In this document: positions 3,001 to 63,026 of the stretch, in pieces
Layout of the letters: each line of letters begins with the position of its first letter
How positions within the stretch are numbered: the stretch's first letter is position 1
Assembly: GCA_028281495.1 (NCBI GenBank)
Contig: JANQJU010000095.1
Span: 25,206 to 89,205 of the forward strand
Direction: 5' to 3'
DNA: 64,000 nt
From: SAR324 cluster bacterium
GTDB taxonomy: Bacteria > SAR324 > NAC60-12
The notes under the pieces: generated by a model
Seen by the model: the letters and a program-made list of their open reading frames with translations, nothing else
Told to the model about the DNA's origin: nothing
Databases searched by the model: none
Translations under genes and position numbers: made by a program

Positions 3001-5121
3001 GACACCAGCAACCAAAAAGCCACCGAGGAGGACTCGAAATCAAAAACTCCAAAACCCGCAACAACCCACGAGACGGGACCTCAAAAACAAGCCCAGAGTG
3101 ATATCGACGAACTGGCCACCATCCTCAAACGGATTATGGATGCCACGGGAGTGGCGATGGAAAGCGACGACACCAATTGGGAAGAGGCGGAACCGGAGGC
3201 TAAAAAGGCCGCCGCCGCCGAGGCAATCGAGACAACCTTCCAAAACAAAACATTCACTCAGAGTGAAATCGATGAAGAGTTGCAACGCGTCAAGAAGAAA
3301 TACGCTCTCAGTGAGGCCTCTTTCGATGTGGACAACAGCCGAATAGCCTTAGCGGCTTCTCCGGCAACATTTTTACCGGTGGAAGCAAACGCAGTTCCAC
3401 CAAGCCTACAAGACGGTGTGGATAGACACGTCAATGATACAGATAACACTGTTGCCGCAACAGGAAACTACCTTAAGGCTACGCATTTCGATGGACCGTT
3501 TCCAAGTCCTGCAGATGAGGTTGACGAAGGTCTACATCGATTTGCTGATATAGGTATTGAGATTCCTCTTGGGGATTCAGGATTAAAAACTCTAGGGAAT
3601 GCACCTCGACGTCCAGGGAGAGTAGAGGCTTTGTTAAGTTCTTATAAAAATGAAGGAAGAGCCGAGGGAGATACTACGTCATATGGTCATTTGGGAGTCG
3701 ATGAAGAAAAGATAATCAAAGGAACGAACAGTGTATCCTACGATGGAGGACATTTGGTGGGAGATCAATTGATGGATAGTCATCATTCATTCAATTTGTT
3801 TGAAGACTGGAACTTGGCACCTCAGGTTGAGAACTTCAACCGAGCAGCTTATTTAAATGTCATTGAAAAACCAGTTGCTAAAGCTATTAAAAACGCAGGT
3901 GCAACAGTCAGTTATACCGTCCAAGTTCAATATCCTGATGATACGTACTCAATTGATCCTTTGAATTTAGCTGCCAATTTGTGGGGGGAGAATAGCCAAA
4001 CCGCAAATCAAATTCGTGATGCAATTATATATAAAAAAGCTCCAAATGAACCTTTAGAACTCAAAAGACGCACACCGGGGTATTGGTGGGCCCGTGCTCA
4101 AATAAAAGAAGGAGGACCGATTCAGTCGGGAAATATTAATCAGTACAAAAATGTTTCTCGGACAATGGAGCCTGATGATGTGAGAGATAATGAAGATTAC
4201 AGCCCTCCTGATGGCGAGCACGCCATATATCTATTGACAGTCGATGGTAATGTTCATGAATCTTCCAGTCGAGCTTTTGAAGCGGCTCCAAGTGCGGAAG
4301 CGGCTCAACGTATTAATTATGTTGCTCAAAACAGCGTAGAAATAACGAGCCGTCAAAAGACTTTTGACCCACCAGCACCAGCACCAGCGGAACAGGCTGC
4401 AGCGTCAGCCGGGCTACCAGCAGCCCCGGCAACAGGGGGAACCAATGGCAGTCCAGACGATCAACAGGCAGCAGCGGCACCACCGGCAGCCCCGGCAACA
4501 GGGTTAAGCTCGCGCAGTCGAGACGATGAATCGGAAGCCCGGCAATGGCCATACGATCAACTGGCCGCCGCGTCACCAGCAGCCCCGCCAACAGAGGGAA
4601 TCGGGCACAGTCCAGACTATCATGATCATATGGCAGCCTGGCTAACGGAAGCCATGCCAGAACGTGAAGGCGCTGAGGAAAATGGTAGCAATCAAGGTAT
4701 GGGTGCAGAATACAAAAAAGTAAAGAAACCTGGTCGTAAACTTAGGAATGATGGTGATGGTAAGGCACCTATAGTGCGTAATGATGCCTCATTAATCACA
4801 AAACCTGCGGAAGAAACATCATCGACAAATCGTTCTCATATGGAAACCGTGACATCGGCAGACCTGTTACCAGAAGACATGCAAAATAATGGAGGCACTA
4901 CAGGGACTGCGAAAATCGAATCAGTGACAAGTCGTCCTTCGAAGAGAAAAGGAGGTGCTGGTGCAGAATTGCCTGATGAAGGTAACTCGTCTGAGGAAAG
5001 TGACTCGCTTCCTGAAGAAGGTGAACCGGATAATATAAAGAGAGAAAAAGAGGATCCTCCTCCTCCGTCTAATGATCCTCAGGCGAAGGAGGGTGGTGCA
5101 GACAGGCCTGATAATTCTTAG
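1..5121 (+). CDS. Giant polymorphic-toxin-like protein, 5'-partial, with internal EssD/YeeF-type (Endonuclease_NS_2-like) nuclease module
   Basis: Frame 1 has no stop from base 1 through the tracked ATG at 379, so the ORF enters from upstream. It has a Lys/Pro/Ala-rich and coiled-coil N-part and a long hydrophobic/amphipathic helical core. Then comes YDGGHLVGDQL..NLAPQVENFNRAAY..VSYTVQVQYPDD (nt ~3730-3960), the GHL..NLxPQ..N pattern I associate with EssD/YeeF beta-beta-alpha-Me nucleases. The tail is disordered, acidic and Pro-rich. Confidence 0.75.
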   Translation, partial: HVSEITTTDDPEKEHKNVTKPEPSKVPEAKKELEARKPQEAVAKKKPNAVEKKKPEGKQRPNTKNKAAHKNKLAVTGKKKPEAAGKKTKENKTGPPDAAAGQQTKPSTKKHSSGDATPPKAAASLAMKAKATSGNQLVDFMRSSPTVMSQNISSLGNAMTANMNQQAKATLEAQPKISMKTSGSPDGGASVPPTLNKAAAPPKPIVLKKGPVPKYNNSVPTQHSRQDPSHISTSIGAKPKLQATGSADPKLTEQASKAGNTEADAAHVESLATIHSNNGEERVQPQQMELHKQAVLPAPVKMDQPAVSSEVLGYATQDLPGSVRTLSDKALKAKMESQLAANDQKVEAAVAKRDLDNQQAMEAAQTQAAKESAAAQAQQDAAVAQGRAAISSKKDEAAAETEGVMHKYKGQVTAKHKETMDKANKTIADHQKRADAEMAKGEQKAQAEKRKAEAEAARERQEAQRKKDKMHWWQKVGSFFSSLWSALSRAITAIVSVVTHVVTTVLKAAKNLAIGILNAATKILTVLIDQFTKALKAFLSVALASFPGIRVKLFAAIDAVVSAVKQVMDKVISSLKNTLTNLIDTLSKAYAFVASVFKAAMTAALAVATAIVKGRFSSLPMILFRAACEAAGIPPEPVIEILKNAADAFMDIIKHPINFVKNLFKATALGIKQFAKGLPKKLLGGLMSWLFGKLAEAGIELPKTWDLPSVFMLILKVLGLTLANVKARATAILGAKNMARIEFVIEQAKTLFTKSPAAVWDHLKAKAHEMKEAALKEINTWLITRVIGGLIEKFSPPVVGAIIGAIQMIMAMVGKAKQILQLMAAVSKSMKLIALGSLGAAANKIDSVLTQSIPLVINMAMGFLGITGLAQKVQDAILKLQEPANQAIDFIIKKFIALAKSAMSAVKKAGKKVVKKVKGLWQGRKDFTTKDGEEHAVYVDGTGKDASIVVNPVPKQEVSAYLDKAEKNLPENDEFKAKVQADLSQARSLLSTIEGDMVDVDTSNQKATEEDSKSKTPKPATTHETGPQKQAQSDIDELATILKRIMDATGVAMESDDTNWEEAEPEAKKAAAAEAIETTFQNKTFTQSEIDEELQRVKKKYALSEASFDVDNSRIALAASPATFLPVEANAVPPSLQDGVDRHVNDTDNTVAATGNYLKATHFDGPFPSPADEVDEGLHRFADIGIEIPLGDSGLKTLGNAPRRPGRVEALLSSYKNEGRAEGDTTSYGHLGVDEEKIIKGTNSVSYDGGHLVGDQLMDSHHSFNLFEDWNLAPQVENFNRAAYLNVIEKPVAKAIKNAGATVSYTVQVQYPDDTYSIDPLNLAANLWGENSQTANQIRDAIIYKKAPNEPLELKRRTPGYWWARAQIKEGGPIQSGNINQYKNVSRTMEPDDVRDNEDYSPPDGEHAIYLLTVDGNVHESSSRAFEAAPSAEAAQRINYVAQNSVEITSRQKTFDPPAPAPAEQAAASAGLPAAPATGGTNGSPDDQQAAAAPPAAPATGLSSRSRDDESEARQWPYDQLAAASPAAPPTEGIGHSPDYHDHMAAWLTEAMPEREGAEENGSNQGMGAEYKKVKKPGRKLRNDGDGKAPIVRNDASLITKPAEETSSTNRSHMETVTSADLLPEDMQNNGGTTGTAKIESVTSRPSKRKGGAGAELPDEGNSSEESDSLPEEGEPDNIKREKEDPPPPSNDPQAKEGGADRPDNS
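4417..4597 (+). repeat. Three copies of a ~21-nt GC-rich unit (CCAGCAGCCCCGGCAACAGGG-like) encoding PAAPATG / PAAPPTEG in the toxin tail
   Basis: Copies read at 4417-4437, 4483-4503 and 4576-4597, all in the coding frame of the large ORF. Confidence 0.8.
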
Positions 5122-10619: not shown

Positions 10620-11714
10620 GTGAAAAAATACCGTACCCTGGCAGGACTCGTCATTTTGATTGTGGGAATTGGTATCGTTGCTTTGTTGCAGCTACTCGAT
10701 AACGATGTCTTCCAAGAAGTCCGTGCCCCCGATGCGATCACTGTGAAAGGCTATTATGGAGGGGAAAAAAGGGCATTTTTGCACAACGAAGCGGTTCTGG
10801 ATTTACTGAAGCAGCAATATGGCATCACCTTAGACCTCACCCGTCGAGGGAGTGTAGCTATGGTCACAACCGAATCCTTGGCGGGCTTTGATTTTGTGTG
10901 GCCTTCCAATCAGGTCACTGTGCAGTTGTTCGAGCAAACCCATCCGACGGTTACCTTTAAATCTCAAATCGTGTTCAATTCCCCGTTGGTGATTTACACA
11001 TGGGGGGAAATTGCGGAGGCTTTGGAACAACGCGGTGTGGTGGAAAAGCGAGGTGAGCATTATTACATCTTTCGCGCTAAAGAACTGATGGAATTGGTGT
11101 TGCAGAAAACCAAGTGGTCAGAGTTTGGCCTGAACCGTTGGGGAAGTATTGCTTTAGTGACCACCGATCCCCGTAAATCCAACTCAGGCAATATGGGGGC
11201 AGGCCTGATTGCCAATTTGCTGCAGGGCGAAGTGGTGTCCTTAGACACCCTACCTCAAGTGGAATCACAACTGGTGGACTACTATAAATCATTGGGATTG
11301 ATGGAAGCGTCGTCAGGCACATTGTTTGACAAATTTATCAAATCCAATGGATCGGTAGGCATGATTTTGGGATATGAAAACCAAATGATTGAATTTTCCA
11401 TTGAGCACCAAGAGGCCTTAGAATTGATTCAGCAGCGGGTTCGTGTGCTGTATCCCGAACCCACGATCATGACCAGCCATCCGTTAATCTCTCTGAATGA
11501 AAAGGGGCAACGCTTGCAACAAGCACTCGAAGATCCTCAAATCCAAGAACATGCTTGGCGAGATCATGGGTTCCGTACCGGGATCAGCGGTATCCAAAAC
11601 AATCCTAATGACTTGAAAGGGTTGAAGGTTCCTGAATTCATCACCAACGCCATGCCCATGCCCAGTGCACGGGTCATGAGTCGGATTATCGAGACTTTGA
11701 ATCAGAACCTCTAA
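10620..11714 (+). CDS. Membrane-anchored periplasmic-binding-protein-like protein, paralogous to the N-domain of the 8297 gene
   Basis: GTG start after AAGGAGG and an N-terminal TM helix. ITVKGYYGGEKRAF...FDFVWPSNQV parallels LTIVSGSENKML...YDAVWPANSI in the vWA protein. Confidence 0.55.
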   Translation: MKKYRTLAGLVILIVGIGIVALLQLLDNDVFQEVRAPDAITVKGYYGGEKRAFLHNEAVLDLLKQQYGITLDLTRRGSVAMVTTESLAGFDFVWPSNQVTVQLFEQTHPTVTFKSQIVFNSPLVIYTWGEIAEALEQRGVVEKRGEHYYIFRAKELMELVLQKTKWSEFGLNRWGSIALVTTDPRKSNSGNMGAGLIANLLQGEVVSLDTLPQVESQLVDYYKSLGLMEASSGTLFDKFIKSNGSVGMILGYENQMIEFSIEHQEALELIQQRVRVLYPEPTIMTSHPLISLNEKGQRLQQALEDPQIQEHAWRDHGFRTGISGIQNNPNDLKGLKVPEFITNAMPMPSARVMSRIIETLNQNL

Positions 11715-12898: not shown

Positions 12899-13033
12899 CC
12901 CACACGAGTCCAGCCGATCTCAGTTCAAGAGAACTTAACTGAATTTTCGAGGTTTGAAAGAAGTCCACCAATATGGCAAAGGCCAACAATGTTTAGGGGA
13001 CACCCCCCAGCAAGCGCTAATATTTTTATCGAA

Positions 13034-13537
13034 TCATAGTAATTCAACTAAGCTTTTACGAACTGCTGCGATTGTCATGAAGAGTTTATTAGGCGTATCG
13101 TTAAACGGGGTGAATCCAAACTTTTTATAGAAGGCGATGGCTCCTTCTTTGGCATCAACGATAACCAAGGGGAATGCTACGGTTTCACTGGCTAACAATA
13201 ACTTTCTGAGAGCATCAATTAAAAGCCACTCTCCATACCCCTGGTGCTTGTAACGTTGATCGATAGCTAGTCGAGCAATCAGTCCTCCTGAACTAGCACT
13301 TTGATGTTTTTTCCGCAATTTTAAGGGTAAAGCCGTTAGGTCAATAGGTGTCATTGTGAGAGTGTAAAATCCAATAATACGTTCTGGGAATTTTTCGTCT
13401 TCCAGCACAAAAGTACGAGTATTATCTTTTTTTGCTTGTTGACTAGCCATCACTCTCAAATAATTATTTAGAGCATAAACTCCACAGTCGAAGTAGTTTC
13501 GATCATGCTTATTTTTATCCAATAGAACTGTAATCAT
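13034..13537 (-). CDS. GNAT-family acetyltransferase toxin (TacT/KacT-like)
   Basis: 167 aa. The N-terminal KHDRNYFDCGVYALNNYL matches H-D-x-x-x-F-x-C-G..LN.YL of DUF1778-associated GNAT toxins. The acetyl-CoA loop is RYKHQGYGEWLL. It overlaps the upstream antitoxin gene by 4 nt. Confidence 0.85.
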   Translation of the reverse strand: MITVLLDKNKHDRNYFDCGVYALNNYLRVMASQQAKKDNTRTFVLEDEKFPERIIGFYTLTMTPIDLTALPLKLRKKHQSASSGGLIARLAIDQRYKHQGYGEWLLIDALRKLLLASETVAFPLVIVDAKEGAIAFYKKFGFTPFNDTPNKLFMTIAAVRKSLVELL

Positions 13538-13821
13538 GACTGAACTTTCCCTTTATAACGTTGGGCAGCTTGTTGTAACCGATTATTGGGGTGGACTTGG
13601 TCATCTAATGCTTCAACAAGCATTAAAGCATCGCGTTGCGAGAGTTTAAGGGTACGCTCACGCTCTATAATACTTTTCGCTTTTTCTATTGCTGCACTGA
13701 GCACAAACGAATTAATGCTAGATACTCCAGACAGTGCTGCAGCTTGAGATAATAATTCTTGAGTATCAGTATCTACTCTAGCGGTGATACGAGGACTAGT
13801 AGACGTCATAATAATCTCCAA
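13534..13821 (-). CDS. DUF1778 (TacA/KacA-like) ribbon-helix-helix antitoxin
   Basis: RITARVDTDTQELLSQAAALSGVSSINSFVLSAAIEKAKSIIERE is the canonical DUF1778 pattern, translationally coupled to the GNAT toxin. Confidence 0.85.
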   Translation of the reverse strand: MEIIMTSTSPRITARVDTDTQELLSQAAALSGVSSINSFVLSAAIEKAKSIIERERTLKLSQRDALMLVEALDDQVHPNNRLQQAAQRYKGKVQS

Positions 13822-13922: not shown

Positions 13923-14192
13923 CTAGCTTGTTTTGAGATTTATTCGTCGGGGCTGTGCGGGAGGTGATTGGTGACTCAAAATCAAAGTTTGTTGCGTATT
14001 GATAGGCAGGACATGAACCCCCTTGAACGAATAGAAAACCCATCGAGCCGTAGGCCGCTTCGTGGGCTTGCTTTTCTGGTCAGGGAAAGTTGCTTGATGG
14101 TGTTCCAACTGCGTTCGAATTCGATTCTCCAAAGCCGCGTAGACCAGTAAACACAGATCATAATCATCATTAAGTTGGAACCTATTATTCAA
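13923..14192 (-). mobile_element. IS4/IS1634-family transposase C-terminal fragment
   Basis: KPTKRPTARWVFYSFKGVHVL resembles the conserved G-K-P-T-x-R-P-T-x-R-W-(I/V)-F block of IS1634-type transposases. The 89-aa remnant has no catalytic region. Confidence 0.45.
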
Positions 14193-14258: not shown

Positions 14259-17200
14259 TTATCCATGGTTGGGCGGGATATTGAGATCAGGAATCTTTAA
14301 AGCATTGCCTATGAAGACCACATTAAACGTAGTAATTTCTATTTTATATCGCTCCATCAATTCTTTACTCCTTGGATGCAATCGAATTTTCCAAGTGGCA
14401 TATAGGGGCGGCCAATTGGTATCGGCCCGAAAGCTATCTTTTCCCGATTGTCGCTTTGACCGTGTGATTTCCCCATTGATAACCTTCACTTCAGACAAAT
14501 ACCGCGTCGAATCTGTACTCTGAAAGTATCGTAGCTTGGTTGGAATTTGATCTGAAATTGGGTCAATGGAATTCTCATCATTTGGATTCACGATCACTTT
14601 ATCCGCAACCAAATTTTGGCAATGGGTTTCTATATCAATCTCCAATTTTTTATCTGACAGAGATTTACTATTGCTTAGCTCCAAATCAATATCCACATGC
14701 TCAACTCGAAAGAAATATAACTTTCTGGTCTCTTCAAAAAATGAAGTATCTGACATTAAATCCAACTCAACAGTTTCTTGATTATTCAGTTGGTCTATTA
14801 GAGCTTGTTTTTCAATAGAGTAGATGACTTTTTCGCCCTTTATCATGCTTTTGGTCATTGGATAGTTTCTGTTGATGATTTTACTTGTCGTCAGATCTGA
14901 CAATTGGTTCTTAAGTTCAAAGGCCTTTTTTTGAATATCAATGAGTGCAATATCCAGTTCAGATTTGCGCAAGAATCGATAGAAAGAGGCGTTCTCGTAA
15001 TCAAGAATCAGTTGAGTAAGCTCCCGATACAAATCAATTTTTGATGTTAAAGTCATTAAGCCCAGTGCCTCGACCTGGGCCTGTTCGGCTTTACTTTCGT
15101 CCTCGAATTCCTTGGCAAGCTCCTTTTGCTGGCGGAGATTTTCACATTTCAACAATTCCACTTGGAGTTTGATTTCCAAATCAAAACGCTTCTCCATCAA
15201 ATTAAAGCCACCTTCGGCCTCGAAACTCATCTGTTCATAGGCTCGCAAAAAGTTTCTTGCACTTTCCTCATTGTAGATATTGTGGATACGGTCTCTTATT
15301 TCGGCATGATTTGTTTTCAATCTCACCAACCAAGCTTTTGCTTCACTCAATTGTTTGATGGGGTCCGGTTCCAGTTCAAGGTCATTTCGTAAACCTGAAT
15401 TTGCGAACAGACTGGAATCGGTTTGATCCAAATCTATGGAAATATTGTGTGCTGCGGACTTCAATTCATCCAAAAGGGGCAAGTATTGGTTTTTATAGTT
15501 TGCTAGCGCGATGAATGCGTTGGCCAATTTTTGCCCGTCGATAGTGCCTTGATGAAAGTCTTGCAAATTTCGTTTAAGCCACATTCTAGACCTATTTTTT
15601 TTCCAACCCTTGTAAAATGATTCCTTCAATTTTTTGCCATAAGGATTGTCCTTGAATGATTTTTCAATATCATCTTTAAGTGTTTCAATTTCTTGGGGCC
15701 ATTTATCGTTTATGTTTTCATTCAATAGATTGAGTTGCTTTATTTCCTTATCGAGTCTCTGTCTATCTTGTGCTTGGTTCTCTCCAGAAGCATTGTCCAT
15801 TTCCTCCTTTTTTTGACGAATGGTGTTTTCGATCTCGGGATATTTTTGTTGGTTAGCTGCGATCCAATCTTCCAACTGTTGTTTTCTTTCTGCGTTTTTA
15901 CCTAGGTTATCAGAATACATTTTGTTGAAGCCTTGGCTGTATTCGTCCCCTTTTTTTGAAATGATTGTTGATGAAATTTTTTCAAATGATTCAACGATGC
16001 TTTTTGTATCCTCATCTTGTATTAGAGCTTTAATACCAACTCCAACGCCACCCACAACAGCCCCCAAAAATAGAGGTGCCGTTGCTCCACCCGTCGCAAT
16101 GGTGACCACTAGGCTTCCCAACATACCAGCAACAGACTCAATGGCATTGAATATCAATTCTTGCCTTCGCTTTTTTTCGAGAGCATCCAATTGGATTTCA
16201 AGTACGTGAAGCAAATACGGTGTGGAATCTCCCAAGTCTTGGATAGCTAGAGACACTTTTTTGATTTCTCTGTCAGTTTGACCAATTGTCTTCTTATAAA
16301 GTTCAATAGTTTCTTGAGAACTATTCCTGGTATTCACTTGAATCAGGTGATGATACTCAGCATTTTTTTTGAACGATTTTAAGAGGGTTGTTAAATTATC
16401 GAGGTTTGTTTCTTTTGATTCCAAAATTTGGATATTTTCGGAAACAAAAATTAGCTTTTTGTAATACTCATCTACATAATACTCTGGAATAGGGTATGGA
16501 TTATCTCTATCTCCGGTGGCTAAAAACTTTTTAACAATGCCGTCCAGGAAGTTCTTCACTAGTATTTTTTGAGAGTTCAAATTTTCGTTTTCAAATTTAC
16601 ATGAACTCAACCAATTGACAATAGATTGTGCTTCTAAATAGTATTTTGACAGTAACAATTCATTGATTAAATCCGATTGAGCGATCACAAATCGTTCTAA
16701 ATTTGGATGTTTCCGCCAAAGCTTTTGGTCTGTTCCAAAGTAGTGAGGGTACAAAAAAAGGGGTTTTTTCAGTGAATAATCTCTAGAAGCGAGTCGTTGT
16801 TCTTCACTAAAATTTCTTGCTGCGTTGATTGTTTGCGTTGAATTTTTTTCAACTTTGTGAAGACTACCTTCACCACTGTACCAAACCTTGAATGAGTAGA
16901 TTGGAGCGCTTTTATTGGATTTAGATAATTGAATATAAGAGTGATCCTTGGTTTCTACTTTGCTTAGTTGGGTAAGTTTAGAGTCAGCATCTATTTTGCT
17001 ATTTGAATGATATATATTCTGATAAGTTATTTGTAACCCGCTATATTCATCCAAACAGAATAGTTGATTAGGATCTTCATCATCAGGAATTACAAAAATT
17101 TGTCGCGCAACAATAGTTAAGCTCGTGCTGACTAAGTTCCGTAGCCATGTGTTCTTGGAGCTTTTGTCTATCAATAGAGTGTCACAGATAATAAACACAT

Positions 17201-17495
17201 TGAGTAAACAGGGTATGTCAGTTCGATCAATTGGATCTCTTTGTTGGTCTGTATGAGTATTTTTTTTTAGTTGGTACTGATTGTATAGCTTATTCAGGAT
17301 ATCTTGTTGCTTTGCAAAACTAAAAATCCATTGCTGAGCTACAAATGTTGTTGCCGTACAATACTCTTGATCAATTTGTCTTGTATGATCGTCATTGCCA
17401 GTTACTTCTTCTGGAATAAAACCATGTCTGTCTAACCAGAATTGATAGTCATCTAGAGTATCGAATTGAAGTGGATCAAGAATTTTTGTTTGCAT
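14259..17495 (-). CDS. Orphan 1078-aa protein with central glycine-zipper membrane segment and long coiled coils
   Basis: AT-rich ORF overlapping the upstream 421-aa ORF by 20 nt. AGMLGSLVVTIATGGATAPLFLGAVVGGVGVGIKAL is a Gly/Ala-zipper hydrophobic hairpin flanked by Lys/Glu/Gln-rich heptad-like segments. I recognise no catalytic motif. Confidence 0.6.
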   Translation of the reverse strand: MQTKILDPLQFDTLDDYQFWLDRHGFIPEEVTGNDDHTRQIDQEYCTATTFVAQQWIFSFAKQQDILNKLYNQYQLKKNTHTDQQRDPIDRTDIPCLLNVFIICDTLLIDKSSKNTWLRNLVSTSLTIVARQIFVIPDDEDPNQLFCLDEYSGLQITYQNIYHSNSKIDADSKLTQLSKVETKDHSYIQLSKSNKSAPIYSFKVWYSGEGSLHKVEKNSTQTINAARNFSEEQRLASRDYSLKKPLFLYPHYFGTDQKLWRKHPNLERFVIAQSDLINELLLSKYYLEAQSIVNWLSSCKFENENLNSQKILVKNFLDGIVKKFLATGDRDNPYPIPEYYVDEYYKKLIFVSENIQILESKETNLDNLTTLLKSFKKNAEYHHLIQVNTRNSSQETIELYKKTIGQTDREIKKVSLAIQDLGDSTPYLLHVLEIQLDALEKKRRQELIFNAIESVAGMLGSLVVTIATGGATAPLFLGAVVGGVGVGIKALIQDEDTKSIVESFEKISSTIISKKGDEYSQGFNKMYSDNLGKNAERKQQLEDWIAANQQKYPEIENTIRQKKEEMDNASGENQAQDRQRLDKEIKQLNLLNENINDKWPQEIETLKDDIEKSFKDNPYGKKLKESFYKGWKKNRSRMWLKRNLQDFHQGTIDGQKLANAFIALANYKNQYLPLLDELKSAAHNISIDLDQTDSSLFANSGLRNDLELEPDPIKQLSEAKAWLVRLKTNHAEIRDRIHNIYNEESARNFLRAYEQMSFEAEGGFNLMEKRFDLEIKLQVELLKCENLRQQKELAKEFEDESKAEQAQVEALGLMTLTSKIDLYRELTQLILDYENASFYRFLRKSELDIALIDIQKKAFELKNQLSDLTTSKIINRNYPMTKSMIKGEKVIYSIEKQALIDQLNNQETVELDLMSDTSFFEETRKLYFFRVEHVDIDLELSNSKSLSDKKLEIDIETHCQNLVADKVIVNPNDENSIDPISDQIPTKLRYFQSTDSTRYLSEVKVINGEITRSKRQSGKDSFRADTNWPPLYATWKIRLHPRSKELMERYKIEITTFNVVFIGNALKIPDLNIPPNHG

Positions 17496-18741
17496 CAGAC
17501 TCCTTGTTTGTAACAGCGTTATCTAAATCGTCTAAAAAAACAAAAAGTGTTTCAAGCCGGGCCTCAACGAATCGAATGAGATGGAAATTGTCCCACATAA
17601 AGGCTTCGATCTCTTGTGTACTGAAACTATTCGTGCCTCTTATATGTTGTAAGTGTTCCTCAAGACTGATTCGGGTGCTGACAATCCAATCTTTGCCGCT
17701 CGTTTTGCTGCTCTTTACCTCCTCTTCAACATCATACCACTTATAAAAATTGTTGAGTTTGGTAATTAAATTTTTCAGTGAAGCAATATGGGTCTGATAG
17801 GTTTCCATAAAATCTTGGCAACTTTGATACCAACAAATGGTGAAGCTATTTACAAAGAATTTGTTTTCGGCTTCGTCCAACCCTGCGATCATGTTGTCAC
17901 ACATTCTTTGAAAATAAAAAGGGATGTTCCAATGGCCCGCTTCTTTGCGCTTTCGAATATCGGCCTTTTTTTCTTGGAAATTAAACTTAAGTGAATTGAG
18001 TGAGAAGTCGGATTTTTCCAAAACTATTTCTTTCTTAAACTTTCTCTCATAATCGTCACCATTATCAAAGAAACCTTTAGCTTCATGGTCGCCCAAGAAA
18101 TAATATACTTTGAGACTATCTATATAGGATGTTGGTTGAAGATTATCGTTGATTATTGTCAACATTTTATCGTTTTCACCTTGGAAATCTTGTTCGATTT
18201 TAATCAATGATTTCTGAATTCTGTCTAATTTATCTTTTATAAATTTTATCAATTCGATTAGTTGATCGATTTTGAATACGACTTCTGATTGGCTAAAAGT
18301 CCCTGGGTTTTCAAGCTGTTCTTTAAAATATTTGATTGTTTCATTAATTGTTTCTTTTGGTTGAGGATGCTTCTCACTGTCTCCGAACCTTAGTTCATAA
18401 AAATCGTTTTTTAGGTTTCTTAATCCACCTTCCTCAAGTTTTTCTCTAGATATAGAGTCAAAAGTATTGATGGATTTGATTAAATCCAGATAGTCCATTC
18501 TTTCGGAAACAAAGTGGATTTGATCATAACAATGTTGAAAGATACGATCTTGACTAGAGGGGGCAATTAAATGAGATTTGTTTTCTACCCAAGCTGGCGA
18601 ATTTTTAATCCACTCTTCGATTTGTTTTCTTGTGTATGGTAACGCAAAATTGAATTTAGCTTTTTCAGATTTAGCCGCAGGTAAACCGGCAAGAGTTTTT
18701 AACGAGTCATATTCTTTTTGTGTAATGCCACTAACACACAT
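17476..18741 (-). CDS. Orphan 421-aa protein, first gene of the two-gene island operon
   Basis: Long uninterrupted AT-rich ORF, same strand as the 1078-aa ORF and overlapping it. Predicted soluble and helical, with no recognisable domain. Confidence 0.55.
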   Translation of the reverse strand: MCVSGITQKEYDSLKTLAGLPAAKSEKAKFNFALPYTRKQIEEWIKNSPAWVENKSHLIAPSSQDRIFQHCYDQIHFVSERMDYLDLIKSINTFDSISREKLEEGGLRNLKNDFYELRFGDSEKHPQPKETINETIKYFKEQLENPGTFSQSEVVFKIDQLIELIKFIKDKLDRIQKSLIKIEQDFQGENDKMLTIINDNLQPTSYIDSLKVYYFLGDHEAKGFFDNGDDYERKFKKEIVLEKSDFSLNSLKFNFQEKKADIRKRKEAGHWNIPFYFQRMCDNMIAGLDEAENKFFVNSFTICWYQSCQDFMETYQTHIASLKNLITKLNNFYKWYDVEEEVKSSKTSGKDWIVSTRISLEEHLQHIRGTNSFSTQEIEAFMWDNFHLIRFVEARLETLFVFLDDLDNAVTNKESDANKNS

Positions 18742-18851: not shown

Positions 18852-19188
18852 TTACCTGAAATCTGGAATCGCAACGGCTGTGGTGAGGCTTTTCGGAAGC
18901 CCATGTTTTGCTAGGGAACCCCCGGTAAAGCTGGGATCATCCGTGACCTCTCGAATCGCATAGTCTGGCATGGGAAAGTTAATCAGTAGAAGGGGCCCTG
19001 CCATCGATGGGCCGTGCCTCTCTCAATCTCAGTTGTGATCCTGTCACGTATAAATCCGTAATCACTTCAGTCGTCACCACCAAATGATGAGGCACTTCAC
19101 GGCATAGCCAGCGGCGCTCACGTTCAACCGCCATATATTTCGTTTTGGGGAAACCCAGTTCTAATGCTGTCTTTGGATTGATATTCAT
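18852..19188 (-). pseudogene. CYTH-domain protein, disrupted
   Basis: The N-part AVERERRWLCREVP...ITDLYVTGSQLRLREA (ExExK-like start) ends in a stop at 18979. A different frame downstream reads PDYAIREVTDDPSFTGGSLAKHG, the typical CYTH C-terminus. The middle of the domain is missing. Confidence 0.5.
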
Positions 19189-19570
19189 TGAGACTCGTCT
19201 TGATGCTCAACTATGATTACTATGATATAATTACTATGAATTGATAACTGCAAGCTCTGGTTCGTCGCACACTCGACGTCGGTTTTTTGAACCGCATCGA
19301 TGAAAGCCTCGAGCTTATCAGGATCGAGACGCCCCCTTGTACGGACACCTGAGCACAAATCCACCCCGAACGGACGCACCGTTTTCATGGCTTCACCGAC
19401 ATTGTCCGGTGACAATCCACCCGCAAGAAATACCGGATGGGAGATACGTCATACAAATTCATCACTCACTGACCAGTCATGGATTCGGCTCGTCCCACCA
19501 TATTCTGGAGTGCTTAACGAAGGCCGTCTAGAATCGAGTAAAATTGAGTTAATGGCATCGCTACTAATAA
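19185..19570 (-). pseudogene. trpF: Phosphoribosylanthranilate isomerase, 5'-truncated and frameshifted
   Basis: One frame reads AINSILLDS...GGTSRIHDWS. A second frame reads PVFLAGGLSPDNVGEAMKTVRPFGVDLCSGVR..GRLDPDKLEAFIDAV. Together these match the C-terminal ~90 aa of TrpF, and no N-terminal half is present. Confidence 0.7.
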
Positions 19571-19649: not shown

Positions 19650-20054
19650 ATGAAAAAGAAACCATTAACCCTCGGACCGTTAGAAATGGAGTTGTTGGGG
19701 TTATTTGAAGACAATCGAGAATTGTCGGTTCGCGATGTTCAAGCGGAACTGAGAAGCCGAAACAATGAATTAGCGTATACAACGGTTATGACGGTCTTAG
19801 GCAGGCTGTATGATAAGAATCTCTTGAATCGTCGTAAAGCAGGGCGGCAATATATCTATTTTCAAGCACAAGAAACCCCTACTACAGGAAAATCATTTTT
19901 GAATCAGGTCAGTCATGCCTTGTTTCACAATCAACGGTTAAAACCGATTCTTTCCCTATTGGAAGAAGATGAATCTCTTACCGAACAGGAGTTGTTGGAG
20001 TTAAAAAAACAAGTGGAGCTTAAAATTCAGAAAATGAAAAAGAGTGAAAAATGA
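19650..20054 (+). CDS. blaI: BlaI/MecI/CopY-family winged-helix repressor
   Basis: 134 aa. LGPLEMELLGLF...LSVRDVQAEL...LAYTTVMTVLGRLYDKNLLNRRKAGRQYIY is the penicillinase-repressor fold pattern. It overlaps the downstream M56 peptidase gene by 4 nt. Confidence 0.85.
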   Translation: MKKKPLTLGPLEMELLGLFEDNRELSVRDVQAELRSRNNELAYTTVMTVLGRLYDKNLLNRRKAGRQYIYFQAQETPTTGKSFLNQVSHALFHNQRLKPILSLLEEDESLTEQELLELKKQVELKIQKMKKSEK

Positions 20055-21190
20055 TCGACTTCACGCTGATGAGTACGAACCTCATTATCAATTCTATACT
20101 TTCCTTTTGGATGGCTGCTTTGATCATTTCCATTAGCCTGAAAATCGTACCTTTGGGAATCAATCGAGGGAAACTCACCATCCTTCTGTTGCCGCTGGTG
20201 GTCCTAGTTTGGGATTGTTTGCAAGGGATCCCATCGAATTCCATTCTGTCGTTAGGATATGAAAAAGCTCAATGGATTTTTGCACATAAGATGGATCCTG
20301 GAATCAATCTGGGTGGAGCTATCGCAACATGGTTAGGGCCAACATTTGCGGTCAATTTTATCCTTTATCTGGAAACGCCAGCCGGTAATTATTCGATGAG
20401 TTATGTTGATTTTATTTTGCTATTCATGGATCGACGAGAAATTTTCATACTATTGTTGGTCGGGAGTCTTTTCATCATCTGTATTTCTTGTGTTCGAATT
20501 TTGCGACGGGCCTTCCATTATTATAGATTTAGCCAGCAGACTGGCTCCTTGCCAAATCCGACTCACGTTGTGCTGACACAAAAAATAGGCCCACCAAGAA
20601 AAATCCCCATTTTTCAGTCCAATGATCAATCGATGATTCCGTTTGCCGGAGGAATCATAAAACCCTTCATTCATATTCCGAAGTGGCTCGATTCAGTCCT
20701 CACCTCTCAAGAACAAAATGCTGTTCTTCAACATGAATTGGCCCATATTAAGCACCGAGACTTGATCCTCTTTTATGCTCTACAGTTTTTAACGGATCTC
20801 TTTTGGTTCATTCCAGGCATCTCACGTTGGAATAAAAAAATTTTATGCTTCATTGAACAACTAGCCGACCAAACCGCCATTCGTTCTGGAGTTGAACCTA
20901 CAGATTTGGCGTCTGCCATGATCAAATTGAAGCAGCACCACCTGAACTCAAACCAAGTATTTGGGATGTCTGTCAGTCCAAACACCATGTTTCAACAAAG
21001 AATCAATCTCTTATTACAACCCCCTCAGCTTTCCAGTTGGTTTGCTTCTACGTGTTGGGGTAAAATCGGAATCGGTTTCTTTTGGTTTTGGACATGTCTT
21101 GGTCTACAAGCAAACTTCCTGGGGAACCATGATTTAACCCCCCCCTTTCAGATGCCGGTGATGACTCTAATTTATCAATTATTTATTTAA
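20051..21190 (+). CDS. M56-family (BlaR1/MecR1-like) membrane zinc metalloprotease lacking a C-terminal sensor domain
   Basis: Multiple TM helices and the HExxH motif in LQHELAHIKHRDL. At 379 aa it is too short to include the ~250-aa penicillin-binding sensor domain of classical BlaR1. Confidence 0.8.
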   Translation: MIDFTLMSTNLIINSILSFWMAALIISISLKIVPLGINRGKLTILLLPLVVLVWDCLQGIPSNSILSLGYEKAQWIFAHKMDPGINLGGAIATWLGPTFAVNFILYLETPAGNYSMSYVDFILLFMDRREIFILLLVGSLFIICISCVRILRRAFHYYRFSQQTGSLPNPTHVVLTQKIGPPRKIPIFQSNDQSMIPFAGGIIKPFIHIPKWLDSVLTSQEQNAVLQHELAHIKHRDLILFYALQFLTDLFWFIPGISRWNKKILCFIEQLADQTAIRSGVEPTDLASAMIKLKQHHLNSNQVFGMSVSPNTMFQQRINLLLQPPQLSSWFASTCWGKIGIGFFWFWTCLGLQANFLGNHDLTPPFQMPVMTLIYQLFI

Positions 21191-21230
21191 TCACCTACAA
21201 AACAGGAGGGTTAATAAATTTTTGTAACTT

Positions 21231-21254
21231 AAAATACTACACTTGTAGTATTTT
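21231..21254. promoter_or_regulatory. Inverted repeat AAAATACTACA-CT-TGTAGTATTTT, second putative BlaI-type operator
   Basis: 11-bp perfect arms, ~70 nt upstream of the 21322 start. It shares the core TACTACA-N2-TGTAGTA with the palindrome upstream of blaI. Confidence 0.6.
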
Positions 21255-21321
21255 AATAATTAAAACAAGGATTGCAGGGGGCTATTTCTCTTCAATCATT
21301 ACGTTACAAAGGAGAGTAATC

Positions 21322-22584
21322 ATGAATCGACATATGCCAACCGCCATTTCATTGATATTAGGAATGGCTTTAGTTTTCATAGCTTCTTGTTCAACCACTA
21401 GCCCGTATCTTGATGTATCAGACCAGGAAAAACGGATAGAAATTTTAAGCAAGTGGTTAGAGTCGGAGCGAATTAAAAGCCATATCGCAGGAATGTCCAT
21501 TGTGATTGTACAAAATAACCGGGTACTGCTGAAACAAGGTTTTGGGTGGTCAAATGTTGAGGAGAAAATACCTGTAACCCCCAAGACGCTCTTTCCTATG
21601 GGTTGTTTAACAAAAACATTCACAGCAACACTCATTGCCAAGTTGGTTGATGAAGGTAAATTAGATTGGGATGATCCTGTGGCTAAGTATATTCCTGGTT
21701 TTAATCTGACGATAAAGAGTGACCATGAGAATGATACTGTAACCATTCGAGATTTACTCACCCATCGGGTAGGGATCGGTCTAACATCTAACAAAGGCTG
21801 GAATAATATGACGAGCCTAGAAGAAGTGCTGACAGCATTATCTGAAGAAAAACCAGCCGCTAGATTCAGAACAAGTTATCTCGATAATATTGCCCTGGAT
21901 ATGGCTGCAGGAGTTTCAGCAGGTAAGGCATCAAATTTGAGTTGGGCCGATTCCTTAAAGACTTTTTTACTAGGGCCGCTTGAAATGAGAAATTCTCAGG
22001 ATTTGGTCCTGCTAAAAAAGAAAAAACTCCGTCAATTTACGAGTTATGATTGGATAGAAAAAGAAGAAAAGTTTAAGAGCATTCCTTGGAAAAACGCTTT
22101 TGTGGATAACAATCCAGCAGCAGGGTTGGTTTCTAATGCAGAGGATATGGGCAAATGGCTAAAGTTTCTATTGAATCAAGGCAAATTTAATCGCCAACAG
22201 GTTGTGAGTGCAGAACAATTACAAGAAACTTGGACCCCTCAGATTGATTTGCCATGGCAGTGGGCCGTTGACCTCAAATTTTCAAAGGGAATATTGGGTG
22301 GAGATGCCGCAGAATATTACGGAATGGGATGGGTGATTGGAGAGAAAAAGGGACAAAAAGTCATCGCGACGAGAGGGCGTTATTCAAAGTTCCGTTCTCG
22401 AATGGTTTTGCTTCCTGATACAAACGTTGGTTTTGTTGTAATGGGAAACTCCCCCGGACACAATTCGGATTTATATTCAAAGTTGATAGATAATATCTTT
22501 GAAGCTGTGTTAGGCAGCCGAAGCCACGACCCAAATGCGACACACGACCCACAACCACACATACCACTTCACCAAACCCGCTAA
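21322..22584 (+). CDS. Beta-lactamase/PBP-fold (class C / family VIII esterase-like) lipoprotein with Cys replacing the SxxK serine
   Basis: Lipobox LVFIASC. TLFPMGCLTKTFTATLIAKLVDEGKLDWDDPVAKYIPGF aligns to the F.(I/L)(A/G)S.TK.FTA...L...G.L.LDD.V..Y(L/I)P motif, but codon TGT (Cys) occupies the nucleophile position. The KTG/HTG box position reads TRG. Confidence 0.75.
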   Translation: MNRHMPTAISLILGMALVFIASCSTTSPYLDVSDQEKRIEILSKWLESERIKSHIAGMSIVIVQNNRVLLKQGFGWSNVEEKIPVTPKTLFPMGCLTKTFTATLIAKLVDEGKLDWDDPVAKYIPGFNLTIKSDHENDTVTIRDLLTHRVGIGLTSNKGWNNMTSLEEVLTALSEEKPAARFRTSYLDNIALDMAAGVSAGKASNLSWADSLKTFLLGPLEMRNSQDLVLLKKKKLRQFTSYDWIEKEEKFKSIPWKNAFVDNNPAAGLVSNAEDMGKWLKFLLNQGKFNRQQVVSAEQLQETWTPQIDLPWQWAVDLKFSKGILGGDAAEYYGMGWVIGEKKGQKVIATRGRYSKFRSRMVLLPDTNVGFVVMGNSPGHNSDLYSKLIDNIFEAVLGSRSHDPNATHDPQPHIPLHQTR

Positions 22585-22835
22585 TAAGCGAAGATCTTCG
22601 GCCTGAAGTGCTTTCGATCCGACGTACCAGATCGTCTTTCTCATCCAAATTGAAGTCGATTCGTTGATCGGTCACTTCGCTTTCCAAGTCACGTTGCTCC
22701 CGAAGCCGTTTGCCTTTACCCATTGATTCCTTTTAGTCATGAAAAACTTTCCATAACCAAAATTAACACCAATTCGCAAATGATTTGTGGATGGAGTCAT
22801 TTGTGGAGAAATCGTTTGAAAACCACAAAATTTCA

Positions 22836-23819
22836 TCAAAATCTTAATTGAAAAGTAAATCTTGGAGCCAAAGTTCTTGAAGATTCTGGATCATCAAAGT
22901 TACTGGCATCTTCTCCCGGCTTTGCCTTCATATCTTTGGCTCTTTGAAGGCGTCGACCATCCGTGATGGTATTTGCCCCAAAATGGATTGCTATGGCCAA
23001 ATCCAAATCAAAATTAGGATTTGCCCCGTGATACACCCAACCGGTATACATAGAATCTACAAAGAGAATAAGATCAAATTCTCCGTGGAGAAGGGTGAAG
23101 ATCACGCTAGAAACAAAATTGCTGCTCCAGCGAGCCATACTGTGAGAAAGTGAATCTTTAAAAAGATGATAGAACCAGTTCTGGATGATTCCTCGGCTGA
23201 GCAGTTCCTCTCCGATACTGGTTAAGTAGGCGTTAACTAAGGTCCAGTTTTGAAGGTCCTCTTTTGTATAGCCATCTGTGTGGTAAACAAACTTTGGAGT
23301 TTCCTGGGTTTCAGTTTGTAGGGCCACTCCAGGATAAAAGGTCGGTTCCAGAAGATAATCCCAAAACTTCAAAGGAGATAAAAAATAGCCATAAGTTTCA
23401 TTATTATACTCACAGGTTTTATCATACAGATCCTGGCTCGTAATTTGCCAAAAGGCAAAGTAGATTCTCCAATAGTTTGCTGCCATAAAATTTTCATATG
23501 GCATAAAAACATCGACCTGGTCTTCATGCCGATAAGGACCTCCATGCTCATCACTGGTGTCCCGGTAGATTTTTTCATCATCGGGTTCAAAATCTTTATG
23601 ATTACGAAAATAGATCGTGCGTTCCAGAGAAAGCCATCGAGTTATACCGAAGGTCAAGGCTTTATCATATTGTCCCAGCCTAGAGTACCCTACTCCTGGT
23701 AAAAGCGTTTCTATCGCCCAAGTGCCCCAGCATTTTGAGATAGAAGTGGCATTGATCGAAGTCGTTAGTACAAAATAGATGGCCACTGAAAGCGCGATAT
23801 CCAAATTTTTTTTAACCAT
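22836..23819 (-). CDS. CPBP (CAAX protease/bacteriocin-processing) family intramembrane protease
   Basis: Motifs EELLSRG (EExxxR), FTLLHG (FxxxH) and AIHFGAN (HxxxN) occur in order in the C-terminal half. There is an N-terminal signal/TM segment. Confidence 0.6.
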   Translation of the reverse strand: MVKKNLDIALSVAIYFVLTTSINATSISKCWGTWAIETLLPGVGYSRLGQYDKALTFGITRWLSLERTIYFRNHKDFEPDDEKIYRDTSDEHGGPYRHEDQVDVFMPYENFMAANYWRIYFAFWQITSQDLYDKTCEYNNETYGYFLSPLKFWDYLLEPTFYPGVALQTETQETPKFVYHTDGYTKEDLQNWTLVNAYLTSIGEELLSRGIIQNWFYHLFKDSLSHSMARWSSNFVSSVIFTLLHGEFDLILFVDSMYTGWVYHGANPNFDLDLAIAIHFGANTITDGRRLQRAKDMKAKPGEDASNFDDPESSRTLAPRFTFQLRF

Positions 23820-24039
23820 GATCCACTTTCTATTTTAAATATATAAGTTCTACCCAAACCAACTTCCGCCTTGAAGCTTGAAAAAACAATACTTGTTGGA
23901 TCCATGTTTGATATCAAACCCATTGATTTTCAAAGTTTTTTTCATGAACGGTTGGTATTCAGCACTGAACGGTAGAAAAAGTGAATATGGGTTATTCTGC
24001 TAACATTTAGATATCGCGAAAATTCTCAAATTTTATCAT

Positions 24040-25023
24040 ATGCTCAAAAAGATTATAAAAAGGCTTCAACAGCTCGTTCAATTTCCTCTGCCTTATCCAG
24101 ATAGATTTTCAGGCAGAATACAGATTTATAGTTTATACGCCACCTTAGGAGGAGGTTTTGCTTTTGCCATTGATTATTTTTCGTACCCTGAAACAAATTG
24201 GGACGATTTTTCTTTGAGCTTGATTTATCTATTGCGAGCAGGAGTGGCGTATTTTTTTGCTTGTTTGATTATTGATGAATACTTAATGCCTCTGCTGCCT
24301 AAGGGGTGGGGGAAGCATTCAAATCGTACGGTAGGTAAAAATTGGATTGTTCAACTGGGAATAGCGAGTTTGTTTTTTCTCTGTATTGAGGTTTCTGATC
24401 TCTTCCTCATCCCTCTGCTCCAAGGTCTTGGATTTCCGTCAAATGTTGATCACTTTGCCTTTTGGGAAGAGTATTTCAGGATCTTACCTTATCTGGCTGT
24501 GATTATGTTTATAGTCATGACATTTCAAAAAAAAATGAATTATTTTTATCAATTACAAGATGCCAAAAAGATCAATCAACTTTTGATAGGAAAACATGAA
24601 CTTTTCGATCCTCCCAATAATTCGAATGTTTTATCTACAGAATCGAATCAGAGTAAGCCCTCCTTTTCTCCTGAAAAACTGATTCTACATACAGCTCAGG
24701 GGCAAGAGTTGGTCGAATTGAATTCAATCATTTATATAAAGGTCAAAGAACATTCCACTCAACTGTTTATTGACAAACTAGGGGGAATGAAAACCATTTA
24801 TGTTTCAACCTCTTTAAAAGAACTTAAGGAAAAACTGCCTGAATCGTCTTTTATTCAGACACATCGGTCATATATTGGAAATTTAAAATTTGCCAATCGA
24901 GTCGTAAATTATGGTGGAAAATATTTGCTTTATCTCAAAGAAGATCAATACTCTATTCCGATTAGTCGAAGACGGTTCTCTGAAACTTCAAAAAAGATAA
25001 AAGAGTGCTATAAAAACGATTAG
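24040..25023 (+). CDS. Membrane-anchored LytTR-domain DNA-binding protein
   Basis: The N-terminal half has several TM helices. The C-terminus IIYIKVKEHSTQLFIDKLGGMKTIYVSTSLKELKEKLPESSFIQTHRSYIGNLKF is a LytTR domain. Confidence 0.75.
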   Translation: MLKKIIKRLQQLVQFPLPYPDRFSGRIQIYSLYATLGGGFAFAIDYFSYPETNWDDFSLSLIYLLRAGVAYFFACLIIDEYLMPLLPKGWGKHSNRTVGKNWIVQLGIASLFFLCIEVSDLFLIPLLQGLGFPSNVDHFAFWEEYFRILPYLAVIMFIVMTFQKKMNYFYQLQDAKKINQLLIGKHELFDPPNNSNVLSTESNQSKPSFSPEKLILHTAQGQELVELNSIIYIKVKEHSTQLFIDKLGGMKTIYVSTSLKELKEKLPESSFIQTHRSYIGNLKFANRVVNYGGKYLLYLKEDQYSIPISRRRFSETSKKIKECYKND

Positions 25024-36200: not shown

Positions 36201-36490
36201 AGAGGCGTTTGGTCTAATTCGGCATAGCACTTTTGAAGCACGGTGAAAGCATTGTCGTAAAATCCAAAAAAGATGTGCAATCCATGCTCTTCAATCCGAT
36301 TGTGCTGTTCTTGATTCCTGCCACTGGCACCTTTGCCTCCTAAGCGCCATCCCATTTGATAGATCGTGATGTCATAGTGCTTGTGCCAGTTGGGTTGCTG
36401 GGTCAATTCGAATGCAGTGACAAGAGAGGAAAGGCCTCCTCCTAAGATAGCCACTTTCTGCTTCTTATGGGTCGTTGTTGAGGGCATCAT
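33269..36490 (-). CDS. FAD/NAD(P)-binding oxidoreductase (amine-oxidase/desaturase-like) fused to a C-terminal acetoacetate-decarboxylase-like domain
   Basis: N-terminal Rossmann dinucleotide motif KVAILGGGLSSLVTAFEL and C-proximal LYLTGDW. The last ~300 aa contain VNSDIASRNGREIFGFNKS, resembling the GRE.(W/F)G.PK block of the ADC family. Confidence 0.55.
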   Translation of the reverse strand: MMPSTTTHKKQKVAILGGGLSSLVTAFELTQQPNWHKHYDITIYQMGWRLGGKGASGRNQEQHNRIEEHGLHIFFGFYDNAFTVLQKCYAELDQTPLNPYLRFDEYFKGHNLISYWDFHEKRFYDITFPPNELKPGESPTVQPKTLEEYTEGLFLFLFKWLHELAEQPPLSQPHLPLEGPLTDALQALLKMLPPTGKGLAEGPLNLLRHLMGVGGMLLEVVKDLLPESWVEIETIAAQDLVRLIAHALSVNLPLLKTITEDSLKVFKQLKSVFQMIDELLPRKEGAKVEFWAYTTYVLTDLFHAVCNGLLQANCIAGYVDWFAPEFDKHSFRKWLVQYGAEEQTIDSFPIFGVLDAFFSRQQDGAAGAVLHGLFEIFNYKGSVMWKMQAGMGDTIFAPLYAALKKRGVKFEFFHRVDSLHLASEKKDGARPIEKITLYRQATLKKSLPYEPLITVPFQREVDGQFQEHDLPCWPSEPLYDQLEEGAILKEQGINLEDWWTEWKEPEKVELHQGADFDLVVLGASIGILPDICQELLNDPENTPFANMLQQVKTVQTQAMQLWFKPDLKGLGWPAAPPVSDGYYEPFDTWADMSHLLPKESWPDNMVHNLAYHCSPLPDDAEGPLPSRTEHGYAQQQQARVKKHALAFLKQSVKGLWPKAIHKESGELNCDLLVDPENREGMDRFEAQYWNAPTNPSDRYVLSVPGSTRARLKANGSGYSNLYLTGDWTWNPISLGCAEAATIAGKYTCQAMVGASATTQVYNDWLQETDQAILSKQVPLIVRDGALYYHQPYEGKQFLSHAFLLPANQDKLNLICEQHLNLGHLKYEPLIPYVLFVATETHRMQQIGDPDYMKEMDFGFWIPVVKTPHNSSIDHFDVADVIQFYQPYLWVNSDIASRNGREIFGFNKSAADLVYPESPASEQLFSCHTYVLDEGQTKVGLAELLSIQKMASAPPLTWLEEGTTLLSRVWQHPQLGMVFLKQFPDIHNGLTACYQAVTEVHTQFSKVAVPQFDEAHFHFLIRRCKSHHIVEALGLHCQPDSPREGFDAVRCIRVSIDEDTNFDVGNGRVVYRSI

Positions 36491-36602
36491 AGAACTCCTT
36501 TGTTATATCCAGCCCCCTTCCTTATAGCTGCGAGTTTAGCATCAAAAAAGAGAGGGCGTTGTTTGAGTGATCAAGTCAGAAACCATCGCCCAATTTGAGA
36601 GG

Positions 36603-62330: not shown

Positions 62331-62338
62331 GAGGTCCA

Positions 62339-63016: not shown

Positions 63017-63026
63017 AAAAGGAGGA

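Follow-up and report, generated by a model that had tools for sequence, protein, structure and literature searches.

In a 64,000-nucleotide stretch of the genome of a SAR324 cluster bacterium (assembly GCA_028281495.1, contig JANQJU010000095.1, positions 25,206 to 89,205; hereafter the window), two overlapping genes on the minus strand, here called A and B, encode proteins that belong to no known family by sequence. Both are genuine genes, both are lineage-restricted orphans, and they lie together in DNA of unusually low GC content. The larger protein, B, contains one uncharged hairpin with a glycine zipper, and this hairpin is the sole functional clue for the pair. What A and B do can be proposed only tentatively. 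Possibly, B inserts into a membrane by means of the hairpin and A is its soluble partner.

Two overlapping coding genes

The two open reading frames (ORFs) have the positions, lengths and overlap that were given in a prediction made earlier from the letters of this DNA (hereafter the original prediction; Table 1). Their coding nature was judged from frame length and base composition. A stop-free stretch of 1087 codons is observed, against a longest one of 164 codons in 200 shuffles of the region. The GC content at the first, second and third codon positions (GC1/GC2/GC3) is 0.46/0.30/0.36 in B and 0.42/0.28/0.34 in A, and this order, GC1 > GC3 > GC2, is shared with the coding sequences of real genes nearby. 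Because of the long open frame and the coding-type composition, A and B are genuine protein-coding genes and not chance ORFs.

B is read in the +1 frame relative to A, and its start overlaps the 3′ end of A by 20 nt. A Shine-Dalgarno sequence, AAGGAG, is located at 17505-17500 within the final codons of A, 4 nt before the ATG of B, and AGGA, likewise a Shine-Dalgarno site, is found 8 nt 5′ of the ATG of A. The overlap and the Shine-Dalgarno sequence at this junction suggest that translation of the two genes is coupled. Scans for promoters and terminators gave matches at shuffle expectation only and were uninformative. Comparison within the window revealed no paralogues of either gene, no internal repeats and no similarity between A and B.

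Orphan status of A and B

Both proteins, at full length and, at E≤10, as six sub-domains, were compared with Pfam, NCBIfam, PADLOC and PHROGs, and no credible match was obtained. RNase Y (E=0.0018) scored 17 bits where the cutoff is 454 bits, and an RTX N-terminal family appeared at E=0.56; these were rejected as noise, as were matches of the coiled-coil type. A PHROG of unknown function, phrog_17774, matched the hairpin of B weakly (E=0.056). Searches of PDB sequences up to E=10 with A, with B and with three parts of B (N-terminal, middle, C-terminal) gave nothing meaningful. The original prediction had been able to assign no domain to either protein, and the searches against Pfam, PDB and defence-system models bear this out, since no family, housekeeping or other, was matched.

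Larger collections gave the same picture. In a word-seeded search of 5.8 billion clusters, B retrieved only itself and A only itself, and a chimera of the non-coiled N- and C-terminal regions of B (E≤10) likewise retrieved only itself from these clusters. When B was compared exhaustively by phmmer (HMMER) with 1.84 billion representatives at 50% identity, drawn from ~15 billion proteins, it was again the only sequence returned. This exhaustive search covered B only, and the orphan status of A rests on the word-seeded search and on scans of DNA. In these DNA scans, by degenerate pattern and tblastn, no match was found in genome contigs (B), metagenome contigs (B and A) or viral contigs (B and A), and tblastn of B against 72,556 plasmids gave no match. 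The only other copies are on two Logan contigs from two sequencing runs, which match without any difference (100% identity along 12.2 kb and 2.8 kb); this complete identity indicates that they come from the same strain.

Orphan genes and gene pairs on mobile DNA are common in undersampled lineages. Three more sizeable ORFs of the window had no match, each in the one library with which it was compared: 10620-11714(+), 364 amino acids (aa), in Pfam, and 41308-42738(+), 476 aa, and 50634-51560(-), 308 aa, in NCBIfam. On this limited evidence, genes without a profile are not rare in this genome, which makes the orphan status of A and B less surprising.

The hairpin of B and features of both proteins

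B consists of an N-terminal region of ~445 aa, the hydrophobic hairpin, a polar helical region of ~380 aa and a non-helical C-terminal region of ~200 aa. The hairpin is the only hydrophobic stretch of B, and in the two proteins together no other run without charge reaches 20 residues. Its sequence, SVAGMLGSLVVTIATGGATAPLFLGAVVGGVGVGI, reads as two short helices linked by GGATAP, with KKRR directly on the N-terminal side and QDED directly on the C-terminal side. The second helix carries GxxxG at residues 478-482 and AxxxGxxxG at 479-487 (A479-G483-G487), and the Gly/Ala zipper quoted in the original prediction is thus present at residues 454-488. By these residues B falls into the glycine-zipper motif class, which is defined by (G/A/S)xxxGxxxG in a hydrophobic helix and is a class of motifs, not a homologous family. 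For the best windows of 17-21 residues, the insertion free energy was estimated at +2.4 to +3.4 kcal/mol, a marginal value on an approximate biological hydrophobicity scale. Given this marginal hydrophobicity, a hairpin that inserts conditionally or stays buried fits better than a classical transmembrane pair inserted constitutively by Sec. The chances that the hairpin is membrane-active, as predicted, seem to us evenly balanced.

Protein A is hydrophilic, has no hydrophobic segment by hydropathy or uncharged-run analysis, and it has heptad-like stretches at residues 148-202, 301-342 and 384-419. No N-terminal signal peptide was found in either protein, and a scan for catalytic and secretion motifs (Walker A, HExxH, GxSxG, CxxC, LPXTG and twin-arginine) found none of them. 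In B, heptad-like segments occur at 338-425, 713-743 and 842-873. The original prediction had described long coiled coils on both sides of the hairpin, and this holds only in part: the segments named are heptad-like, and long helices, over residues 428-870, are predicted by a structural model of very low confidence, which has strand or coil in the last ~180 residues.

This model and that of A were made by AlphaFold2 from the single sequence, without alignment. The mean predicted local distance difference test score (pLDDT) is 35.1 for B and 46.4 for A, the latter modelled nearly all as helix. Foldseek comparison of both models with PDB gave no match at E≤0.001 (none below 0.05) and template modelling (TM) scores of at most 0.25, so that structure prediction and search, the check that the original prediction had proposed, yielded no significant match. 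The matches listed are long-helix proteins of a generic kind, among them SMC arms, chemoreceptors, axonemal proteins and BAR/ESCRT-III proteins. For A, the ClyA-family proteins AhlC, XaxB, ClyA and AhlB recur, with non-significant values (E 0.2-1.4, TM 0.15-0.25) obtained from a model of pLDDT 46; they are a lead only and no evidence for a fold.

Genomic setting and origin

A (34.8% GC) and B (37.1% GC) are ~10 points below the backbone genes of the window (46-51%), and their AT-richness relative to the backbone is as the original prediction had it. A GC profile in steps of 300 nt has two low-GC blocks, the first of ~5.9 kb and the second at 19.5-25.2 kb (Table 1). Between them, at 18.9-19.5 kb, GC rises sharply to 49-50% over 600 bp.

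Table 1. Features in and around the A/B segment and the defence loci of the window (positions are those of the window).
Feature	Position	Strand	Description
Gene A	17476..18741	-	421 aa, 49.7 kDa, acidic (isoelectric point 5.5), soluble; predicted mostly helical; orphan
Gene B	14259..17495	-	1078 aa, 125 kDa, isoelectric point 5.6; orphan
A/B junction	17476..17505	-	3′ end of A overlaps start of B by 20 nt; AAGGAG
Hairpin of B	16032..16136	-	Codes for B residues 454-488; 35 residues, uncharged Gly/Ala/Val, AxxxGxxxG; SVAGMLGSLVVTIATGGATAPLFLGAVVGGVGVGI
Low-GC block 1	13.0-18.9 kb		GNAT toxin, TacA antitoxin, insertion sequence (IS) remnant, B, A
GNAT acetyltransferase toxin	13034-13537	-	Acetyltransf_7, 3e-9; low GC
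TacA-like antitoxin	13534-13821	-	Pfam TacA1, 9.8e-25; low GC
IS1634-family transposase, C-terminal remnant	13923..14192	-	89-aa ORF directly downstream of B
Two short ORFs	18852-19188	-	Backbone GC; no profile match
trpF pseudogene	~19290-19540	-	5′-truncated, in-frame stop; Pfam PRAI positions 154-192 of 193
Low-GC block 2	19650-25023		BlaI-like repressor, BlaR1/M56 peptidase, serine beta-lactamase-fold protein, CPBP/Rce1-like protease, LytTR regulator
TIR-pentapeptide protein	55095-56492	-	Pentapeptide repeats, C-terminal TIR-like; PADLOC ThsB/PDC-S66 matches
Type I-E CRISPR-Cas operon	56587-63773		cas3 56587-59211, cse1 59208-60674, further cas-sized ORFs to 63773

Besides A and B, the first block contains a toxin-antitoxin (TA) pair of the TacAT type and the remnant of an IS1634-family transposase. 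The remnant is 50-54% identical to ISSpu7-like transposases over aa 13-76 only (tblastn against plasmids). What is left of trpF is its last ~40 codons, and more trpF-like sequence is found upstream, broken by a stop. The position of this backbone-GC remnant between the two low-GC blocks suggests that there were two separate insertions and that they destroyed an operon of the backbone. No direct repeats flanking the low-GC block were found. The low GC, the IS1634 remnant, the TacAT pair and the trpF pseudogene fit a foreign origin of A and B, and the low-GC segment that contains them was probably acquired horizontally and inserted in or beside the now-degraded trpF region. It is very likely that A and B are real, acquired genes and, by prediction, co-expressed. 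The original prediction had placed the pair between a TacAT pair, a transposase scar and two pseudogenes; the first two and the trpF pseudogene were recovered, and the second supposed pseudogene, at 18852-19188, has no profile match.

A short motif, TCATAGTAAT, occurs in two tandem copies (19216-19247) upstream of a 69-aa ORF, and an inverted copy at 13026-13044 overlaps the stop codon of the GNAT toxin. The copies at 13026-13044 and 19229-19247 make up an inverted repeat with 19-nt arms, 89% complementary and 6.2 kb apart, with TacAT, the IS remnant, B and A between them. The repeat exceeds shuffle expectation somewhat, but DNA of backbone GC is included in it, and chance may account for it. 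In the second low-GC block, the pairing of a CPBP intramembrane protease with a LytTR regulator resembles loci for bacteriocin immunity and regulation; no link of this pairing to A and B has been shown.

Comparison with known systems

Colicins are known to keep a hydrophobic helical hairpin inside a bundle of helices and to extrude it as the soluble protein passes into the membrane. The pore-forming domains of colicins share with B a single uncharged hairpin of ~35-40 residues, rich in Ala, Gly and Val, within a hydrophilic, soluble protein of long helices. However, the colicin hairpin is near the C-terminus of a domain of 10 helices that is recognised in Pfam and PDB, and an immunity gene follows, whereas B has no such match.

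Another likeness is found in the glycine-zipper toxins, that is, the N-terminus of Tde1 from type VI secretion (T6SS), the C-termini of TelE and EsxX from the type VII secretion system, and the ionophoric toxins of contact-dependent inhibition. These have a short Gly-rich membrane-active element, (G/A)xxxGxxxG (PMC10240207, PMC10434224, PMC12744356, PMC11630599), and in Tde1, TelE and EsxX the glycine zippers are required for membrane action (PMC10240207, PMC10434224, PMC12744356). The AxxxGxxxG of B is an element of the same kind. However, these toxins are either small proteins or have a terminal zipper, whereas the hairpin of B is in the middle of a protein of 1078 aa. They also have delivery domains (LXG, PAAR-linked or CdiA) and adjacent immunity genes, none of which was recognised for B, and there is no sequence homology.

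The C-terminal region of B had loosely reminded the original prediction of Tc toxin A (TcA). This resemblance found no support in the searches. With whole B or its C-terminal 209 aa, no TcA family of Pfam (VRP1, neuraminidase-like, pore-forming helices, TcB-binding) was matched at E≤10, a phmmer search of PDB returned no TcA chain at E≤10, and tblastn against the plasmids found nothing. TcdA1 was listed by Foldseek solely for protein A (E=1.2, TM 0.16). What can be shown in common is limited to large size, partly helical structure and a C-terminal region rich in beta structure. TcA has ~2500 aa, and B is less than half of that; the TcB and TcC partners (the Rhs-repeat cocoon) are absent, the neighbours of B being A, the IS remnant, TacAT and pseudogenes.

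Possible functions of the pair

From the features described above we infer, as a possibility and not as the probable case, that A and B form a module of two genes, acquired horizontally, with B inserted into a membrane by its hairpin and A as the soluble, helical partner of B. B would be made in the cytoplasm and would be soluble or peripherally bound. Its hairpin would enter the lipid bilayer as a helix-turn-helix, with the two large hydrophilic regions that flank it, the N-terminal ~450 aa and the C-terminal ~590 aa, staying on the same side. Self-association of B through the glycine zipper could then perturb or permeabilise the membrane, and A, being soluble, acidic and helical, would work stoichiometrically with B as a co-subunit, a chaperone or an inhibitor. 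That the pair has a toxin or defence role is doubtful. As an extension of this proposal, A and B might be the first members of a family, not seen before, of two-component proteins that insert into membranes, in which B would be a large amphitropic switch, working by the glycine-zipper hairpin under the control of A, and would serve as a toxin or abortive-infection effector on the mobile DNA of a poorly sampled lineage; we think this unlikely.

Several observations weigh against a membrane-inserting module. With its marginal hydrophobicity, the hairpin could simply be a buried element in the core of a soluble helical protein. No homologue of A or B was found, and so conservation, co-occurrence and selection offer no evidence. 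Domains of toxins or enzymes, secretion signals and immunity domains were recognised in neither protein, no defence or secretion-system genes adjoin the pair, and no small membrane 'immunity' ORF lies beside it. The single-sequence AlphaFold2 models are of too low a quality for any fold to be supported by them.

Other explanations have to be weighed against this one. The pair may be a binary alpha-helical pore-forming toxin on the ClyA/YaxAB principle, in which A would bind the target membrane or prime B, B would extrude a transmembrane hairpin from a long helical bundle, and release would take place without signal peptides. In YaxAB and XaxAB, a helical bundle extrudes a hydrophobic hairpin of helices, which crosses the membrane (PMC5935710, PMC6086661). 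Like these, A and B are encoded by adjacent, co-oriented genes and are, by prediction, largely helical proteins without signal peptides, B having its central hairpin between long helices. The first protein of each pair is of ~45-50 kDa, and A, of ~420 aa, is near YaxA (45.9 kDa; PMC5935710). The recurrence of AhlC, XaxB, ClyA and AhlB in the Foldseek list for A points in the same direction, but these matches are non-significant and are mixed with coiled coils of SMC, chemoreceptor and axonemal proteins. No match to ClyA, Hbl or Yax sequences was found in Pfam or PDB, and no significant fold match. Subunits of the ClyA family, which includes ClyA, YaxAB/XaxAB, AhlABC and Hbl/Nhe, are of ~30-46 kDa and encoded in one operon; the operon and the size of A agree with this, but B, at 125 kDa, is three times YaxB (39 kDa) and so does not fit the subunit size of the family. 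B also has additional regions at its N- and C-terminal ends whose fold is not known. The membrane helices of YaxB are also amphipathic, unlike the 35-residue uncharged Gly zipper of B. A toxin of this type is very unlikely. B might also be a substrate of a specialised secretion system (an effector or translocator of the type III (T3SS), type IV (T4SS) or T6SS kind) that places a bilobed hydrophobic hairpin into the membrane of a target cell as chlamydial Inc proteins or IpaB/YopB-type translocators do, with A as its chaperone. A hairpin between helical or coiled regions and low-GC orphan genes would suit such a protein, and an acidic helical partner encoded upstream, such as A, would be of a type common among chaperones and co-effectors. 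However, no secretion-system gene is present among the window ORFs scanned, the MIX, PAAR, LXG, Rhs and translocator families are absent from the profile searches, IpaB appears in Foldseek only at E=8.3, and typical secretion chaperones are far smaller than A (421 aa). The sigma-54 activator, the GH30 glycosidase and the CRISPR locus of the window, moreover, suggest a free-living organism, and we regard a secreted effector as highly improbable.

B may also be an effector of abortive infection or defence that acts on membranes, with A as its sensor or regulator. The original prediction had proposed a candidate membrane-acting effector with a partner (sensor, chaperone or immunity), in a context that it called typical of defence or virulence islands. 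Membrane-disrupting effectors are common in defence systems, and low-GC, accessory DNA next to a TA pair and the scar of an IS would be a suitable place for one. The island claim is weak, however. Neither A nor B matches, at E≤1, a component of the anti-phage systems in PADLOC-DB v2. Ten neighbours of the pair were compared with PADLOC, and the only match among them was the distant TIR-pentapeptide protein. This protein and the type I-E CRISPR-Cas operon form the only recognisable defence cluster of the window, ~37 kb from A and B. The pair also has no nucleotide-binding, nuclease, protease or signalling domain, and no homologues by which enrichment near defence genes could be gauged, so that a defence effector seems quite unlikely. 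Much the same low probability applies to another possibility, in which A and B derive from one ancestral gene of ~1500 aa that a +1 frameshift has recently split, or are otherwise cargo of a dead mobile element, now decaying and without current function. The +1 frame of B, the 20-nt overlap, the decaying surroundings (the IS remnant, the trpF pseudogene and frameshifted short ORFs) and the lack of homologues showing constraint would all be consistent with this. On the other hand, the frame of B is open for just 9 codons upstream of its ATG, which is preceded by a strong and well-spaced AAGGAG, and 1499 codons have stayed intact at 36% GC, where stops arise easily, which speaks for recent or continuing selection. 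Finally, B may be a structural protein of a mobile element. Tape-measure proteins of phages and conjugation proteins are often ~1000 aa long and helical, with Gly-rich hydrophobic segments, and B resembles them in size, helical content and its central Gly-rich hydrophobic segment; the weak phrog_17774 match is a further point of contact. However, no significant match to tape-measure, tail or conjugation profiles was found in PHROGs or Pfam, there is no tail-gene neighbourhood, no phage or conjugation gene is nearby, and no relative was found on viral contigs or plasmids. The context largely refutes this explanation, which is extremely improbable.

Other loci of the window

Away from A and B, several loci of the window are of interest in their own right. 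Cas3 of the type I-E operon is at most 36% identical to plasmid-borne copies. A neighbouring TelA protein retrieved no close relative from 185,579 species representatives, and the sigma-54 activator would speak against a cyanobacterium. At 379-5121(+), a protein of 1580 aa has as its sole recognised domain a DNA/RNA non-specific endonuclease (aa 1078-1196) and is perhaps a large nuclease toxin of the secreted or polymorphic kind. AT skew is unusually high (0.39) in the first kb of the window. Two tandem ORFs at 28742-32852(-), each of 665 aa, are probably a tandem duplication, and the first encodes a glycosidase of the GH30 family. At 33269-40337(-), a protein of 1073 aa, in which an N-terminal Rossmann motif for NAD(P) binding is all that was recognised, adjoins a Ser/Thr kinase-AAA_16-TPR (STAND-like) protein of 1244 aa; both are large and poorly characterised.

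Meaning of the finding

The novelty of A and B consists in the absence of any assignable family or system, which is absence of evidence, and no new mechanism is demonstrated. Orphan genes alone open no long-standing question to testing, and the main value of the pair at present is that of a documented and rigorously checked orphan (ORFan), a curiosity rather than a discovery. If the pair is a working membrane module, it would represent a new and unrelated solution to the switch from the soluble to the membrane state that is made by colicins, ClyA-type toxins and glycine-zipper effectors, and B would stand for a family of 125-kDa proteins so far found in a single strain.

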